The position numbers were made by a program, and so were the translations under genes. From a bacterium (lineage in GTDB: Bacteria; Zhuqueibacterota; Zhuqueibacteria; Residuimicrobiales; Krinioviventaceae), in assembly GCA_963675755.2 (NCBI GenBank), contig CAXXMD010000002.1:2336001-2400000 (forward strand): a stretch of DNA of 64,000 nt, written 5' to 3'. The notes under the pieces are model-generated. The model ran no database searches. It saw nothing but the letters and a program-made list of their open reading frames with translations, and had not been told where the DNA came from. Shown here one piece after another: positions 51,204 through 56,147 of the stretch. Each line of letters begins with the position of its first letter. Position 1 is the first letter of the stretch.

Positions 51204-51575
51204 TTAGGCCAATACTTGTTCCATTGCATTAAACAAACGTTCATCTACAATGGGTTTTACAAGAAAAATGGATTCGGAATCTTGTTCAAGCCTGTCTAAT
51301 GTACGCTTGTCTGAATTACCGGTAAGGTATATTATTGGAATTGAAAATTCCTTACGGATGTTTGTGGCCGTTTCAATTCCATCCATGTCCCCTCGTAAGC
51401 CAATATCCATAATAACAATATCTGGCCCATATTCTTTGACACTCTTTAAACAATCTTTACCTGAATTTACAACAGCAACAACATTGTATCCTTTTTCATT
51501 CAGCTTTAATTCAGTATCCAAAGCAATAATTGCATCGTCTTCGGCAATAATTACCCTAGCTTTATCGTTGTTCAT
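51204..51575 (-). CDS. Single-domain response regulator (REC)
   Basis: AEDD, DIVIMDI, LTG, KP. Confidence 0.9.
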   Translation of the reverse strand: MNNDKARVIIAEDDAIIALDTELKLNEKGYNVVAVVNSGKDCLKSVKEYGPDIVIMDIGLRGDMDGIETATNIRKEFSIPIIYLTGNSDKRTLDRLEQDSESIFLVKPIVDERLFNAMEQVLA

Positions 51576-51674
51576 CGATCACTCCGTATTATTTCTATCT
51601 TAAAACTTAAAAGTACAGATGTCTATTCCATAAAAAATCAACAAAAAACATCATATTCAAGCTTACATGACATC

Positions 51675-51745
51675 GAAATAGGAATTTCCTTACAACAAAA
51701 TACGTAATTTTCCCTATTTCATTTTTGAAATCAGTGTGTTATATT
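51675..51745 (+). promoter_or_regulatory. Promoter of candidate sRNA plus upstream imperfect palindromes
   Basis: TTTCAT(51717)-17-TATATT(51740) with TG extended -10; TAGGAATTTCCTTA 51679-51692 and TACGTAATTTTCCCTA 51701-51716. Confidence 0.5.
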
Positions 51746-51750
51746 TAATC

Positions 51751-51915
51751 AGTTAGTTAACGCAAGCAGTAATGCTTATATGTCACCCCCGGTACTGGCG
51801 ACCCCCCTAAGCTGGTACTGAGACATCTTTTATGCGTTAACGACTTAATGCCAAGCGTCATCCCCGGTACCGGTGACCCCCCTAAATCGGTACTTAGACG
51901 GCTTGGCATTTTTTT
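51751..51915 (+). ncRNA. Candidate structured sRNA with two covarying C-rich-loop hairpins
   Basis: 43-nt units 51782-51824 and 51857-51899 (36/43 identical, all stem changes keep pairing), enclosing stems, GUAA tetraloop, terminal U7; G-U pairs work only on + strand. Confidence 0.75.
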
Positions 51916-51930
51916 ATTATATGCAATTTT

Positions 51931-53442
51931 TTAATAAATTGCCTCACCAATTTCAAGCACAATATCAATCCTACGATTTTTACGGCGACCATCTTCTGTT
52001 TCATTACTGGCTATCGGTTTACTTTTTCCATAACCAATGCTCTGTATTTGTTCAGAAGGCAAGCCCATATTGGCTATTAAATAAGATTTGACAGCATTTG
52101 ATCGCTGTTCGGAAAGTTTCTGGTTTGCGGCATCGTGCCCTCTCGAGTCGGTATGACCTTCAATAACAATAGGCGCATTGGGGAACTCTCGTATTGCTCG
52201 CTGTACCTTGGTCAGCAATCCAAAATAACCGGGCTCAATAACACTCTTACCTGATGCAAAATTCAAACCCACCAAACGAATAACAAGGTTGGTGCCTTCG
52301 CGTAGAACAACCGCTTCCTGAGGCGCGTACATATCTTCAATTCGTTTAATCTTGGCTTCCTGACGTTTCTTGGCTTCAAGTGTCTCTTTCAGGCCCGCTT
52401 CCTGTTGTTTGCTTACATCCAGTTCAGCGGTAAGCTTGCGATTTTTTGACATGCTTTCATCGAGCTCTTTGTTAACCCGTTCCAATTCTTTGCGCAATTC
52501 AATTTTATCATCAAGGGACGCAGCAATTGCCAGATGGAGCGATTCCATCGCCGGTTGCATACCATTGTCGTACTGTACATCCAGCTTCATGGTATTAGAA
52601 ACGGTTGAAAGATTGTCTTCAAGATCCAGAAATATCTTTTCCCAACTGTCTTCTTCTTTCCGGTTTTTTTGAATCAAATCCGAAAGAAAAATAGCATGAT
52701 TGGCTTCGTATTCCGCTTCTTCGGCTTTTTCTCTGGCTGTAGACTGGGCGCTGCGGTCGGTATTGAGAATATTCTCAGCCTCTTGCAGTAATACTTTGGC
52801 CCGGTTGTAGGTTCGGGGGGCATAACGATCTGCTTTGGTTTCTTTGGCCTTGTCCAGGAGTAAATGCACCTTGCCAATAATGCTGGCCTTGATAGCATTT
52901 AATTCAGCTTGACGATAACGATCTTCACCATCTTTGGCTTTTTTAATTGCGTTATTGATATCATTATCTTCAATCTCTTCCATTGCATCTTTAAAACTGC
53001 GTTCTGCCTGTTCGTACAATTCTAAAGAAAATTCAGGGGCATTGGCAATCAATGCATCATCACGCGCCTGAATTAAAAAAGGAAGCTGTTTTTTAGCTTC
53101 TTTGGCATTACCAATTGCTTTTGCAAGATACTCTTCAGCACGATTTAAATTCTTTTGGATGCTTTTCACATCCCTGCCACGCTCAAGATCCAGTTTGGCT
53201 TCATCAAAATGCCGTTGGGCCCGTTCAAAATCATTCGGTGACAATACATGAACCTGGAGTGATTGAGCATCTTCAAGGACGTGCTCAATGTCAACCAATT
53301 TTTGGTTCATTTGAGCCAATATACCCTGCTCACCAGCCTGCGCAAAAACAGAACCAGGAGCAGAAACCAGCACAATGAACATGATCAACATAAAATAATA
53401 AACAGGCAAGCTTTTGCTGCCATTTCTCAAGACTAAAGACAT
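51931..53442 (-). CDS. OmpA-family peptidoglycan-binding protein with long helical/coiled-coil N-terminus
   Basis: Signal peptide, IEGHTDSRG...NQKLSEQRS...GYGKSKP...NRRIDI; RBS AAGGAGAGGGGAGG. Confidence 0.88.
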   Translation of the reverse strand: MSLVLRNGSKSLPVYYFMLIMFIVLVSAPGSVFAQAGEQGILAQMNQKLVDIEHVLEDAQSLQVHVLSPNDFERAQRHFDEAKLDLERGRDVKSIQKNLNRAEEYLAKAIGNAKEAKKQLPFLIQARDDALIANAPEFSLELYEQAERSFKDAMEEIEDNDINNAIKKAKDGEDRYRQAELNAIKASIIGKVHLLLDKAKETKADRYAPRTYNRAKVLLQEAENILNTDRSAQSTAREKAEEAEYEANHAIFLSDLIQKNRKEEDSWEKIFLDLEDNLSTVSNTMKLDVQYDNGMQPAMESLHLAIAASLDDKIELRKELERVNKELDESMSKNRKLTAELDVSKQQEAGLKETLEAKKRQEAKIKRIEDMYAPQEAVVLREGTNLVIRLVGLNFASGKSVIEPGYFGLLTKVQRAIREFPNAPIVIEGHTDSRGHDAANQKLSEQRSNAVKSYLIANMGLPSEQIQSIGYGKSKPIASNETEDGRRKNRRIDIVLEIGEAIY

Positions 53443-53466: not shown

Positions 53467-53862
53467 TTAATGAGGTAATGTAACTTTTGTCAAAGCTTCT
53501 CTCAAGTTTTCAGGTGTTACCGGCTTTGTTAAATACCATTCACACCCTTCATTAAATGAAGACATGATATCTTTGACATCATTTTTAATTGTAATCATTA
53601 AAATCTTGGCTTCCTGAGAAAACTTTACCTTATTATCAGTTTCCCATTTGCGGATATGATGAACCACCTGCTGTCCTGACATATCTGGCATTTCGATATC
53701 CATAGTAATCAAATTATAGGGGTCAGAATCTTTATGTGCTTTTTCAAACATAGACAGAGCTTCTTCACCATTCGGAACCGCGTCACACGTGCCATACTCA
53801 GACAATAACGCCTGCAATTTTGTACGGCTCACGTAATCATCATCCACAACCAATATCCTCAT
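53467..53862 (-). CDS. Single-domain CheY-like response regulator
   Basis: ILVVDDD, LITMDIEMPDMSG, KP. Confidence 0.9.
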   Translation of the reverse strand: MRILVVDDDYVSRTKLQALLSEYGTCDAVPNGEEALSMFEKAHKDSDPYNLITMDIEMPDMSGQQVVHHIRKWETDNKVKFSQEAKILMITIKNDVKDIMSSFNEGCEWYLTKPVTPENLREALTKVTLPH

Positions 53863-53885
53863 TGCTTACTCCTTTCAGTTGGAAA

Positions 53886-56147
53886 TTATTTTTTATTATT
53901 GATATATTCTGTTAAATTATTTGCTTCAGTCTGAAAGGACTGAAAATAATCTTGCATATTCATTGTGTTATTTACCAGCGCACTCTCTTCAATTTTTTCT
54001 GCCCAACTTGCAAGTGGCATTGCCGTAAGATTGGCTGCACCGCCTCTAATTTTATGAGCTTCTGCAGCAAGTTTTTTCAAATCATTCTCTGCCAACGCCT
54101 GTTCAAACCGGGCTAACTGGTTTTTCACATCAACTAAAAAATGTTCCAAAACATTATCAAGGACCGTTTGGTTTCCACCAAATTCTACAATGGCTCGCTC
54201 ATAATCAATAGGTTTATGATTATTGGCGACTGGTTGTTCTTGATCTATTGGAACACTATTGTTTTCTATAATTATTTCATCATTTCCGGGCATCCATTTT
54301 TTTACCTGGTATACAAATGCTTTTCTTCGCAAAGGTTTTACCAGTACATCACTCATACCCAATTCTTTACACTTTTGTCTCGTTGCAGAATCTGCATGAG
54401 CCGTTATGGCCAGAATAGGCACATTTTTATAATAGCTAACTGAATTACGTATTTTTTGTGCTGCTTCATAACCACTCATTTCCGGCATTTGCAGATCCAT
54501 TAATACCAGGTCATATTGGTTGTTTTTGCACAATTCTATTGCGTCTTTTCCATTGTCAGCAGTATCAATCTTGTAATCTGATTCATTCAAATGCTGCAAT
54601 GCTACCTGCATGTTGGGGTAATAATCATCTACAATTAAAATCCGTCCCTGTCCTGAACCGGCCGCAAGCGGCATTATCACTTTTTCTTCTATATTTTCAA
54701 CCGTATTAGTATATACTTCCATTGGAAGTACAAACCAAAAGTGACTCCCTTTTCCTGGTTCACTTTCCAGAAAAATTTGGCCGTTCATCAAATCCACAAG
54801 TTGATAAGCAATTGTAGTACCCAGACCTGTACCACCATATTTTCGGGTAATACTTCCATCTGCCTGTGTAAAACTTTTGAAAATATCTTTTTGTTTATTT
54901 TTAGGAATACCTATACCTGTATCATGAACGTGAAATTCAATACTATGCAGTTGGTCATTAATGTTTTCAAAAGCTACAATAACCTTTACATAACCAGATT
55001 CAGTAAATTTCACAGCATTACTGCACAGATTCATTAAAATCTGAAGCAGGCGAAGTTCATCTCCCAGGTATACCAACTGATTTTTATTATTAATTTCAAT
55101 TTCAAATTTCAAATTTTTAGCATCTGCAAGTATTTTAACACTCTTGCTCAGCTTTTCCATTATATGCCTTAAACTGAACGGTCTTTTTTCAATCAGCATC
55201 TTTCCGGCTTCAATTTTTGCCAGGTCCAAAAGATCACTGATTAATAAAAGCAGCATTTCAGATTGTTCCAATACTGTTCCAGCATGATCATAAATATGAT
55301 CAAGCGAATTTGAATTCAATATAGATTCAGAGAATCCAATAATCGAGTTCAATGGAGTACGCATTTCATGAGACATATTGAAAACAAACTGCGACTTTAA
55401 TCGGTTCGCATCTTCTGCTACCTTTTTTGCATGCCTTAGATTCTCTTCTGCCTGTTTTCGTTCAATATATGCACCCAGCATTTCACTGGCTGTCTGTAAA
55501 ACTCTCAAATCCACTGAACGCCATTTTTTCTCACGATTATTGTCAACAAAACAAATCATACCATACCACTCTTTGTTAACAAAAATAGGAATTACCAACA
55601 AAGATTCAATTGATAACTCTATTAAAAATTGCCTTTCAGTTTCATTAAACTCGCCTGTCACACCAAATATGGGATTCCGGGAACTCAATTCAGTTTGCCA
55701 TCTCTGCAATCCTTTTGAATAACGCAAGGGAGACAATAATTTGTTTTTCACCTGACTGTGAAAGCCTCGGGAACAACGTTCGTTTGTTACCCTTGCACCC
55801 AAGCCCCATTTATAATTATGGTTTTTTAATACCCATACACGGCTAACACCAACTGACTGTTGCAAAAATTTGAGTCCCGTATCAACTGAATCTTTTTGAG
55901 TTACCAGCAAAGCCTTTGAAAAATTCGCAAGTCCTTCTTCATAACGAAGACGGATCGCAAGCGCGTTTTGAGCACTTTGCTTTTCTTCAATTTCCTGATT
56001 CAACTGCTCGTTAATATTGGCAAGCTTTGTATAGATCTCGTAATAATTTTTACGGGCAGTTTCGTATTCTTCCTGGGTCAACTGGAGATCATTATTCAGG
56101 TGCTTAATTTCTGTTTCCAGTAAATGTATCTTTTGTTTGTGTTCCAT
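53886..56147 (-). CDS. Cytoplasmic hybrid histidine kinase (coiled coil-GAF-HisKA-HATPase-REC-Hpt)
   Basis: MSHEMRTPLN, NLCSNAVKFT, DTGIG, GGTGLG, MDLQMP, AHKIRG; no TM segment. Confidence 0.92.
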   Translation of the reverse strand: MEHKQKIHLLETEIKHLNNDLQLTQEEYETARKNYYEIYTKLANINEQLNQEIEEKQSAQNALAIRLRYEEGLANFSKALLVTQKDSVDTGLKFLQQSVGVSRVWVLKNHNYKWGLGARVTNERCSRGFHSQVKNKLLSPLRYSKGLQRWQTELSSRNPIFGVTGEFNETERQFLIELSIESLLVIPIFVNKEWYGMICFVDNNREKKWRSVDLRVLQTASEMLGAYIERKQAEENLRHAKKVAEDANRLKSQFVFNMSHEMRTPLNSIIGFSESILNSNSLDHIYDHAGTVLEQSEMLLLLISDLLDLAKIEAGKMLIEKRPFSLRHIMEKLSKSVKILADAKNLKFEIEINNKNQLVYLGDELRLLQILMNLCSNAVKFTESGYVKVIVAFENINDQLHSIEFHVHDTGIGIPKNKQKDIFKSFTQADGSITRKYGGTGLGTTIAYQLVDLMNGQIFLESEPGKGSHFWFVLPMEVYTNTVENIEEKVIMPLAAGSGQGRILIVDDYYPNMQVALQHLNESDYKIDTADNGKDAIELCKNNQYDLVLMDLQMPEMSGYEAAQKIRNSVSYYKNVPILAITAHADSATRQKCKELGMSDVLVKPLRRKAFVYQVKKWMPGNDEIIIENNSVPIDQEQPVANNHKPIDYERAIVEFGGNQTVLDNVLEHFLVDVKNQLARFEQALAENDLKKLAAEAHKIRGGAANLTAMPLASWAEKIEESALVNNTMNMQDYFQSFQTEANNLTEYINNKK

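Follow-up and report, generated by a model that had tools for sequence, protein, structure and literature searches.

In the 6C small RNA of Actinobacteria (Rfam family 6C; B11 in Mycobacterium), C-rich loops bind G-rich sites such as the AGGGGGG ribosome-binding site of panD, and need neither Hfq nor ProQ (PMC6486639). The cuckoo family of Alphaproteobacteria (CcsR / RSs0680 / alpha-r14) consists of two to four adjacent hairpins, each displaying the same C-rich loop motif, and in Rhodobacter they are transcribed together with the gene of a small protein from an RpoHI/HII promoter, one member being bound by Hfq (PMC4615179). In Firmicutes, the conserved small RNA RsaE/RoxS acts through C-rich motifs on G-rich sites of mRNAs (PMC6158497). 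A regulatory layout of another kind is found for GacA, a response regulator of the REC+GerE type, which has a palindromic upstream activating sequence ahead of the small-RNA genes RsmX/Y/Z (PMC2375449, PMC4353343). Here we describe a predicted small RNA of KSB1 (Zhuqueibacterota), an uncultured phylum of the FCB superphylum (PMC11683472). It is located in a stretch of 64,000 nucleotides (contig CAXXMD010000002.1 of assembly GCA_963675755.2, positions 2,336,001 to 2,400,000), which in its full length is referred to as the window. The RNA contains two C-rich hairpins, termed units 1 and 2, and defines a new RNA family of a known functional kind that is absent from Rfam 15.

Judged by analogy, the closest described systems would be 6C, cuckoo/CcsR and RsaE/RoxS with respect to function and GacA with RsmX/Y/Z with respect to regulatory layout. 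The KSB1 RNA is a member of none of 6C, cuckoo, RsaE/RoxS and Rsm/Csr, since the Rfam models do not match, its loops are devoid of GGA, and motif and phylum differ. With 6C it shares C-run loops on hairpins and conservation across a large taxon, whereas the Rfam 6C model gives no hit at E ≤ 10 and the phylum is a different one; moreover, the KSB1 unit is itself a terminator with a second C-run in an internal loop, and it is multiplied as separate or fused genes with a dedicated promoter and an adjacent two-component system. The likeness to the cuckoo RNAs includes modular hairpins with freely varying stems, several copies per genome and a partly preserved context, whereas the anti-Shine-Dalgarno-like loop motif CCUCCUCCC of that family contrasts with the ACCCCCCUAA motif of KSB1, whose RNA has its own promoter with a palindromic site, an Hfq gene not being found and no Rfam model matching. 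RsaE/RoxS, which is controlled by two-component systems and whose C-rich motifs are of the UCCC type and reside outside the terminator loop, is unrelated in sequence and gives no Rfam hit to the KSB1 RNA. The system of GacS/GacA with RsmX/Y/Z and CsrB resembles the KSB1 locus in its regulatory layout and its repeated identical loop motifs, whereas Rsm and Csr RNAs display GGA for CsrA/RsmA, a motif that no KSB1 apical loop contains. While GacS is an unorthodox membrane kinase, the KSB1 kinase is of a cytoplasmic PAS/HisKA_3 type, and the GTAAG and CTTAC halves of the putative regulator site are spaced by 7 nt in the clearest KSB1 members compared to 6 nt in the printed GacA sites. The KSB1 family is unusual in two respects: its functional loops form part of the terminator hairpin, and its promoter, which is private to the family, is linked to a two-component system of the PAS/NarL type.

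The family had not been recognised in a preliminary description of the locus that was made from the letters of the DNA, and it is likewise absent from Rfam 15. This collection contains no model that matches the 64-kb window at the gathering score. At E ≤ 10, the region 51500-52100 retrieves only SpR18, TD-1, NEAT1_1 and AfaR at a chance level of 15-22.5 bits, compared to gathering scores of 50-100, and the loci of 12 relatives give no match at E ≤ 0.1. Among the literature matches listed, there is no paper on RNA regulators of KSB1, nor any on a bacterial small RNA with the loop sequence.

Units 1 and 2 are members of a genuine RNA family. A BLAST search with a 176-nt stretch of the locus revealed a second copy in the same genome, consisting of a single hairpin, and matches in 20 of 41 related genomes, where the part found in all relatives is unit 2. 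In these relatives the outer stem runs into a U-tract, and inside it follow the GUC/GAC clamp, an internal loop of 4-6 C on the 5' side, an inner stem of 8-9 bp and the same 11-nt loop. In a MAFFT alignment of 24 units with a structure of 21 pairs, 95.3% of the cells are paired and 16 of the 21 pairs have changed on both sides. None of 500 shuffles reached as high a value, pairing dropped to 25-49% when the partners were slid by 1-3 columns, and RNAalifold independently recovered both helices. The covariance model R1 finds 67 units in 54 sources, and the 49 distinct ones show pairing in 93.0% of cells and compensatory changes in all 21 pairs, values again attained by none of 500 shuffles, in an alignment that was fitted to the model and is hence biased towards structure. 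The covariation that the preliminary description had read from two hairpins is thus reproduced by a covariance model and a search of relatives.

Across the order, conservation covers the whole 11-nt loop, the internal loop and the GUC/GAC clamp, while the stems drift. The apical loop, (G/A)ACCCCCCUAA, is nearly invariant and contains ACCCCCCUA in 44 of the 49 distinct units, with C7 in four and UC5 in one, and a C-run of at least 4 or CCUC is present in the 5' half of 47 of them. The C-runs of the apical loop and of the 5' internal loop CCCC(C) are single-stranded, conserved and flanked by covarying stems, as in base-pairing small RNAs with C-rich loops. Three loci in three genomes of the same family (L168, L180 and L182), found as antisense matches in a search for loop complements, hold more divergent units with a C7 loop (GACCCCCCCTAA), and the family is therefore somewhat larger than reported by model R1.

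The distribution was determined in a sample of 151 genomes of the phylum, which are metagenome-assembled genomes (MAGs) where not found does not equal absent; this tally, like those of the regulator matches and of the sequence patterns discussed below, includes the genomes G115 and G149, on which no claim depends. A match at E ≤ 0.001 is contained in 41 of them. In the window's own order, 35 of 36 sampled genomes are positive (by family 16/16, 12/12, 6/7 and 1/1), families of the same class outside this order contribute 3/4, 1/18 and 1/5, and the remaining 18 families of the sample show no match at this threshold. The family is thus restricted to, and near universal in, one order of KSB1 and nearly unseen elsewhere in the phylum. 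A scan of the genomes of 185,579 species with a strict pattern identified 24 stretches, whose records carry the following titles:

candidate division KSB1, 8 records
uncultured Cytophagia, 6 records
'bacterium', 5 records
Desulfobacterales, Calditrichota, Actinomycetota, Gemmatimonadota and Nealsonbacteria, 1 record each

Model R1 was applied to 15 of the 24 stretches and matches 13, the exceptions being the Gemmatimonadota and Nealsonbacteria records, which we take as chance matches of the pattern. For the matching records, we infer KSB1 (Zhuqueibacterota) as source and attribute discordant titles to noise in the labelling of MAGs. Carriers titled KSB1, Cytophagia, Calditrichota, Desulfobacterales and Actinomycetota are placed in one order by the genome search, and the labels look unreliable.

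The copy number ranges from 1 to 5 units per genome. In several genomes 2-3 units are arranged as tandem genes about 160-260 nt apart, in others they are directly fused, and single-unit genes with two C-runs are the commonest form. The window's own genome (G000) contains 4 units at 3 loci (E < 1e-6). The second of these copies is located about 70 nt past the stop codon of a NarL-type regulator gene and does not have the full promoter motif described below. The third locus (L038, G000:C3:1615458-1615531, - strand; 42.7 bits) has an identical loop but not the conserved promoter block, and its internal loop contains CCUCC, an anti-Shine-Dalgarno-like core. The presence of several copies per genome, some of them in tandem, might point to a mobile or selfish repeat resembling a miniature inverted-repeat transposable element (MITE), if not to a chance pair of similar hairpins, a reading that we regard as hardly credible. 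The copies are too few for such an element, their structure is preserved by compensatory changes, and their synteny with a two-component system is kept across two families. In addition, the strict pattern has no match in a viral contig collection, and neither terminal inverted repeats nor target-site duplications were seen in the sequences read. The many dispersed copies that had been named as the mark of a MITE are accordingly not a property of this genome.

The features of the RNA in the window, where every coordinate and motif of the preliminary description was found when 51400-52300 was read, are as follows:

51753-51915, + strand: predicted small RNA of about 160 nt, its start placed from the promoter box and its end at the U-tract
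51756-51841, + strand: three-way junction of helix P1, the GNRA-capped hairpin and unit 1, found in the minimum-free-energy and centroid structures
51756-51764 and 51833-51841, + strand: closing helix P1, in which GTTAACGCA pairs with TGCGTTAAC, from sequence and fold
51765-51776, + strand: GNRA-capped hairpin AGCA-GTAA-TGCT
51782-51824, + strand: unit 1, with GTC/GAC clamp, CCCCC internal loop (51786-51790), 9-bp stem and loop GACCCCCCTAA (51800-51810)
51847-51856 and 51901-51910, + strand: outer stem of unit 2 (10 bp), formed by AATGCCAAGC with GCTTGGCATT and leading into T7 (51909-51915)
51848-51915, + strand: whole unit 2, the canonical family unit, with outer stem, G bulge (51900) and U-tract
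51857-51899, + strand: core of unit 2, with TCCCC internal loop (51861-51865), 9-bp inner stem and loop GACCCCCCTAA (51875-51885)

The 11-nt apical loops of both units are identical, and the five stem substitutions that had been noted between them (U-G to C-G, G-U to G-C, G-C to G-U and the double change C-G to U-A) do indeed keep the pairing. Unit 2 is matched by model R1 over 51848-51915 with 82.7 bits (E 9.3e-19), and unit 1, which is without the outer terminator stem, over 51778-51834 with 44.5 bits (E 1.1e-8). The minimum-free-energy fold of the + strand of 51745-51920 (-59.9 kcal/mol, z -4.75, equalled by none of 200 shuffles) consists of the three-way junction followed by the terminator hairpin, whereas the fold of the - strand is weaker (z -2.22, 5 of 200 shuffles equally good). 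Unit 2 has the anatomy of an intrinsic terminator, with its outer stem followed by T7 and a U-tract that is conserved in the alignment; it was missed by a simple terminator scan, since this accepts loops of no more than 8 nt. The fusion with a three-way junction was only seen in the window and in a genome of the same genus (98% identical, with the tetraloop changed from GTAA to GCAA). The basic family unit is a single terminator-closed hairpin of about 70 nt, and the 160-nt fusion of two units in the window is a variant at the level of the genus.

Both genes flanking the RNA are on the - strand, encoding a receiver-domain protein of 123 residues (51204-51575) and an OmpA-family protein of 503 residues (51931-53442), which agrees with the initial statement that no credible + strand gene follows on the 3' side. 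Topoisomerase I, another receiver protein and a hybrid kinase are encoded farther out. The signalling genes around the RNA comprise the 753-aa hybrid kinase (GAF, HisKA, HATPase, REC and Hpt domains) and the receiver proteins of 131 and 123 residues (53467-56147, - strand; 51204-51575, - strand).

The upstream region contains three elements:

51678-51693, + strand: distal imperfect palindrome ATAGGAATTTCCTTAC, a putative site of a dimeric transcription factor, which aligns with the most conserved upstream block
51698-51720, + strand: proximal promoter block AAATAC-N4-ATTTTCCCTATTTC, with the half-site-like TTTCCCTA and the upstream promoter box
51737-51749, + strand: downstream promoter box TGtTATATTTAAT, extended -10-like, with TATaTTaa conserved about 20-22 nt past the upstream box

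When the 90-130 nt preceding each of the units were aligned, a conserved block of about 80 nt emerged. A profile built from 18 of these sequences has 29 hits at E ≤ 1e-4 among 51 distinct upstream regions, one of them falling on the reverse strand of a region that is hit in forward orientation as well. The promoter consensus reads tAGGgaatTTCCTtAC - N5 - AATAC - N4 - TTTTCCctATTG - about 20 nt - TATaTTaa, where tAGGgaatTTCCTtAC is the distal block, for which relatives show clearer palindromes such as GTAAGG-N5-CCTTAC and GTCAGG-N5-CCTGAC. The proximal block, which accounts for the columns of highest information in the alignment of the 29 hits, repeats the right half of the palindrome and overlaps the upstream promoter box. 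In the window's own genome of 6.48 Mb, the single significant hit of the profile is that of the window (E 8.1e-14, the next best being 0.15). The extended -10 element that had been described just upstream of the RNA is present as a TGnTATATT box at 51737-51745, and its counterpart TATaTTaa is conserved in the promoter alignment, from which transcription should start at about 51753-51757. The downstream box (51737-51749) was not called in a scan for the sigma-70 consensus. Interpretation of the upstream block as a promoter for sigma-54 or for a sigma factor of the extracytoplasmic function (ECF) type was rejected by eye only. The layout with two boxes resembles what we take to be the promoter type described for Bacteroidetes. 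The 123-aa receiver gene is divergent from this promoter, with the palindrome located between the two, and the palindrome could serve both the RNA and the receiver gene.

Transcription of the + strand from this promoter, as proposed in the preliminary description, is supported indirectly, by the conserved promoter, the U-tract on the same strand, the G-U pairs and the strand bias of the model scores. Tandem copies in several genomes each have their own promoter, and the RNA is followed by different genes from locus to locus, often in convergent orientation. The + strand is fixed by the high frequency of G-U pairs, each of which would turn into an A-C mismatch if the opposite strand were the RNA (the first inner pair is G-U in 15 cases and G-C in 8), and model scores amount to 13-18 bits for the reverse strand compared to 45-86 bits. 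Among the 19 sequencing runs listed for 51650-52000, none is recorded as RNA; two contain the whole stretch, their kind being unrecorded, and those containing part of it are mostly DNA.

Clustering of the open reading frames (ORFs) that flank 41 distinct RNA loci revealed two recurrent neighbours. A response regulator of about 218 residues with REC and GerE domains (NarL-type) is encoded directly upstream of the RNA on the same strand in 15 of the 41 loci, and in 14 loci this gene is itself preceded on the same strand by a gene for a HisKA_3 kinase. In the window's own genome, the kinase is a protein of 1509 residues with GAF, multiple PAS, HisKA_3 and HATPase domains, of a cytoplasmic type and with no other domains detected. 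Matches to the regulator at an identity of at least 50% come only from genomes of the RNA-carrying order. The RNA follows just downstream in 14 of 28 loci of regulator orthologues in other genomes (with filters off), or in 16 of 30 if the own and the same-genus genome are included. This synteny is conserved across two families, while in one family of the order the adjacency was never seen, and a family outside the order with RNA hits contains no regulator match at E ≤ 1e-40. RNA loci without the promoter motif are found in G007, G015 and G046, genomes with no close match to the regulator, and likewise among the loci examined in G002, G012, G024, G027 and G028, where the regulator is present. 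The NarL-type regulator most likely binds the palindrome and the half-site, as suggested by the synteny and by the dimer-like character of the site.

Alternatively, the RNA might mainly be a cis element with no function in trans, serving the two-component operon or other genes upstream of it as an elaborate intrinsic terminator or as a structure of their 3' UTR. It would account for the U-tract at the end of each unit, for the position directly after the regulator gene on the same strand in 15/41 loci and for the second copy of the own genome, which follows the regulator gene without the full promoter motif. We nevertheless consider this explanation improbable, as a terminator needs neither an invariant 11-nt loop nor an internal loop. 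Many copies, including that of the window, are preceded by a conserved promoter of their own but not by a gene on the same strand. The contexts of the copies can be unrelated, such as a position after GroEL or one convergent with metH and tyrS, and individual promoters precede the tandem copies of several genomes.

For the function of the RNA, we tentatively place first, at rather less than an even chance, an Hfq-independent regulator that would act in trans by pairing with G-rich sites of mRNAs, ahead of its action as a protein sponge. In this mechanism, the dedicated promoter, with its palindrome bound by the NarL-type regulator that is paired with the GAF/multi-PAS HisKA_3 kinase, would start transcription of the RNA. 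Its exposed C-runs, four in the fusion of two units found in the window, would then form G-C-rich pairs with single-stranded G-rich stretches of mRNAs without the help of Hfq. Some of these stretches would be ribosome-binding sites containing a run of G, and pairing would either block translation or alter the stability of the mRNA. The proposal builds on anatomy and analogy, because the outcome of the target tests was weak or negative throughout. The own genome, which is 98% complete and has a GC content of 39.5%, was searched for Hfq and none was found.

In this genome, TTAGGGG, the complement of the 3' part of the loop, is located ahead of the start of long ORFs in 16 of 202 occurrences, compared to a background of 0.012. 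Ribosome-binding sites with a G-run precede 19 of 269 ORFs for cargo of type IX secretion compared to 76 among the 3182 remaining long ORFs (odds ratio 3.1, p 9e-5), a comparison that is unbiased but counts paralogues. Many of the best candidates with G-run sites 0-14 nt ahead of their start are secreted or surface proteins, small exported proteins being among the candidates, and ten of them, which were picked for long ORFs and are thus biased, comprise seven type IX secretion cargo proteins, one TonB-dependent receptor-like and one PorZ-like protein and one of no family. Taken together, the target signals in the own genome are weak.

Several candidate sites were discarded. A family of PKD/type IX secretion paralogues was rejected as a conserved target because it is specific to the genus and the number of G in its site is variable. 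TTAGGGG ahead of a TTG codon in the kinase gene is internal to the ORF of 1509 residues, and several occurrences of TTAGGGGGA are unrelated, as they follow tRNA genes and repeats of tRNA fragments. The PKD paralogues, about ten proteins of approximately 1100-1190 residues with PKD and type IX sorting domains, are encoded in tandem arrays at G000:C2:1933246-1957604 and G000:C3:43251-50121. Their genes have a conserved 5' leader with 2-5 G in the ribosome-binding site, and relatives of high identity occur only in this genus. The type IX secretion cargo of the genome is very large, with a C-terminal sorting domain detected by an iterated profile in 269 of 3451 long ORFs, and a search with the Pfam model Por_Secre_tail gave at least 150 scored hits, these being the best 150 of 279 candidates. 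At the tRNA sites (G000:C2:1688500-1689400 on the - strand, G000:C3:1554400-1554600 and G000:C3:1940000-1940600), terminator hairpins and repeats of partial tRNA-like copies come after the tRNA genes, which looks like the trace of elements integrating at tRNA genes; one of these sites contains a small ORF that was judged by eye from its sequence as GIY-YIG-like.

Several results weigh against the favoured mechanism. The main Shine-Dalgarno sequence of the own genome is AAGGAG, and for the C6 loop to pair with it a mismatch has to be tolerated. The enrichment of G-run sites in type IX cargo is inflated by paralogues, the number of G varying from 2 to 5 within the site of one array whose gene family is genus-specific. 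Across genomes, where the target tests were coarse pattern counts, TTAGGGG-N3-9-ATGAA is not found above the reversed control in 37 genomes of the order (60 vs 73). Among 30 loci around perfect 9-nt complements of the loop, one per genome, a start of an ORF is close by in only 6, and these six ORFs share no homology with each other, leaving no conserved target. The perfect 9-nt complement is depleted relative to its reverse to an equal extent in genomes with and without the RNA (0.166 vs 0.213); both medians of the ratio are 0.2 (Mann-Whitney p 0.54 for 149 of the 151 genomes, with G115 and G149 left out), and there is therefore no RNA-specific signal of avoidance or enrichment. Three RNA-carrying genomes of the window's own family do not contain a regulator match at E ≤ 1e-40. 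Finally, the invariance of the whole 11-nt loop and the arrays of 2-3 adjacent units fit a protein-binding site at least as well. As an observation on the phylum at large, nearly every family contains TTAGGGGGGV about five times less often than the reversed sequence of letters (0.17 in the order, 0.21 in others), a depletion that is probably an effect of composition, such as the rarity of TA or TAG.

A close rival is a protein sponge of the Gac/Rsm kind, in which the repeated invariant C-rich loops would titrate a global RNA-binding protein with a preference for C-rich single strands, for example the KhpA-like KH or the RRM protein of the own genome, and in which the RNA genes would be nearly the sole direct targets of the two-component system. 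We consider this explanation somewhat less likely than pairing. In its favour, loop, clamp and internal loop are conserved across the order while the stems drift, and in the window and several other lineages 2-3 units are fused or directly adjacent. The promoter profile is unique in the own genome, and the neighbouring regulator has the same REC+GerE domain type as GacA. The GTAAG...CTTAC-like half-sites of some members resemble the GacA upstream activating sequence printed for rsmY and rsmZ (PMC4353343). One RRM_1 protein and one KhpA-type KH protein in the own genome would be candidate partners. Conversely, no candidate partner is encoded beside the RNA in the 41 clustered loci, the RNA-binding proteins that were found belong, as controls showed, to widespread families and are not specific to the order, and the commonest form, a single unit with two C-runs, would offer few sites for a sponge. 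CsrA is not an expected partner either, since the loops do not contain GGA: all 49 distinct apical loops are C-rich and free of this motif, which the CsrA/RsmA sponges expose, and no GGA is present anywhere in the window RNA at 51753-51915. A CsrA-family protein is encoded at G000:C2:1007752-1007910 (PF02599, 84.2 bits), a match that demonstrates the existence of the protein only.

The preliminary description had proposed either a base-pairing regulator or a sponge, and the evidence fits both. Its more specific version of an anti-Shine-Dalgarno regulator is weakened, with AAGGAG being the main Shine-Dalgarno sequence and no regulon of G-rich Shine-Dalgarno sites emerging from coarse tests across genomes. 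Pairing of the C-runs with G-rich mRNA sites is our tentative first choice.

If the RNA were a sponge, the logic of Gac/Rsm would have arisen independently on the basis of another RNA motif and another protein. In a fully developed form, which we consider unlikely, a pathway of this kind in the FCB superphylum would use a cytoplasmic GAF/PAS kinase and a NarL-type regulator with a near-private palindromic site to induce hairpin RNAs that are present in multiple copies. A poly(C)-binding global regulator of the KH or RRM type would then be sequestered by their invariant ACCCCCCUAA loops together with the CCCCC internal loops. Such a pathway, if true, would be a CsrA-independent counterpart of the Csr/Rsm system. 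The family itself is a well-supported regulatory RNA found throughout an order. Its promoter is defined, its functional motif is very simple, and there is a candidate for the cognate two-component system. Metatranscriptome studies could use the RNA as a marker, and it could open a way into post-transcriptional control in FCB bacteria that do not have Hfq.

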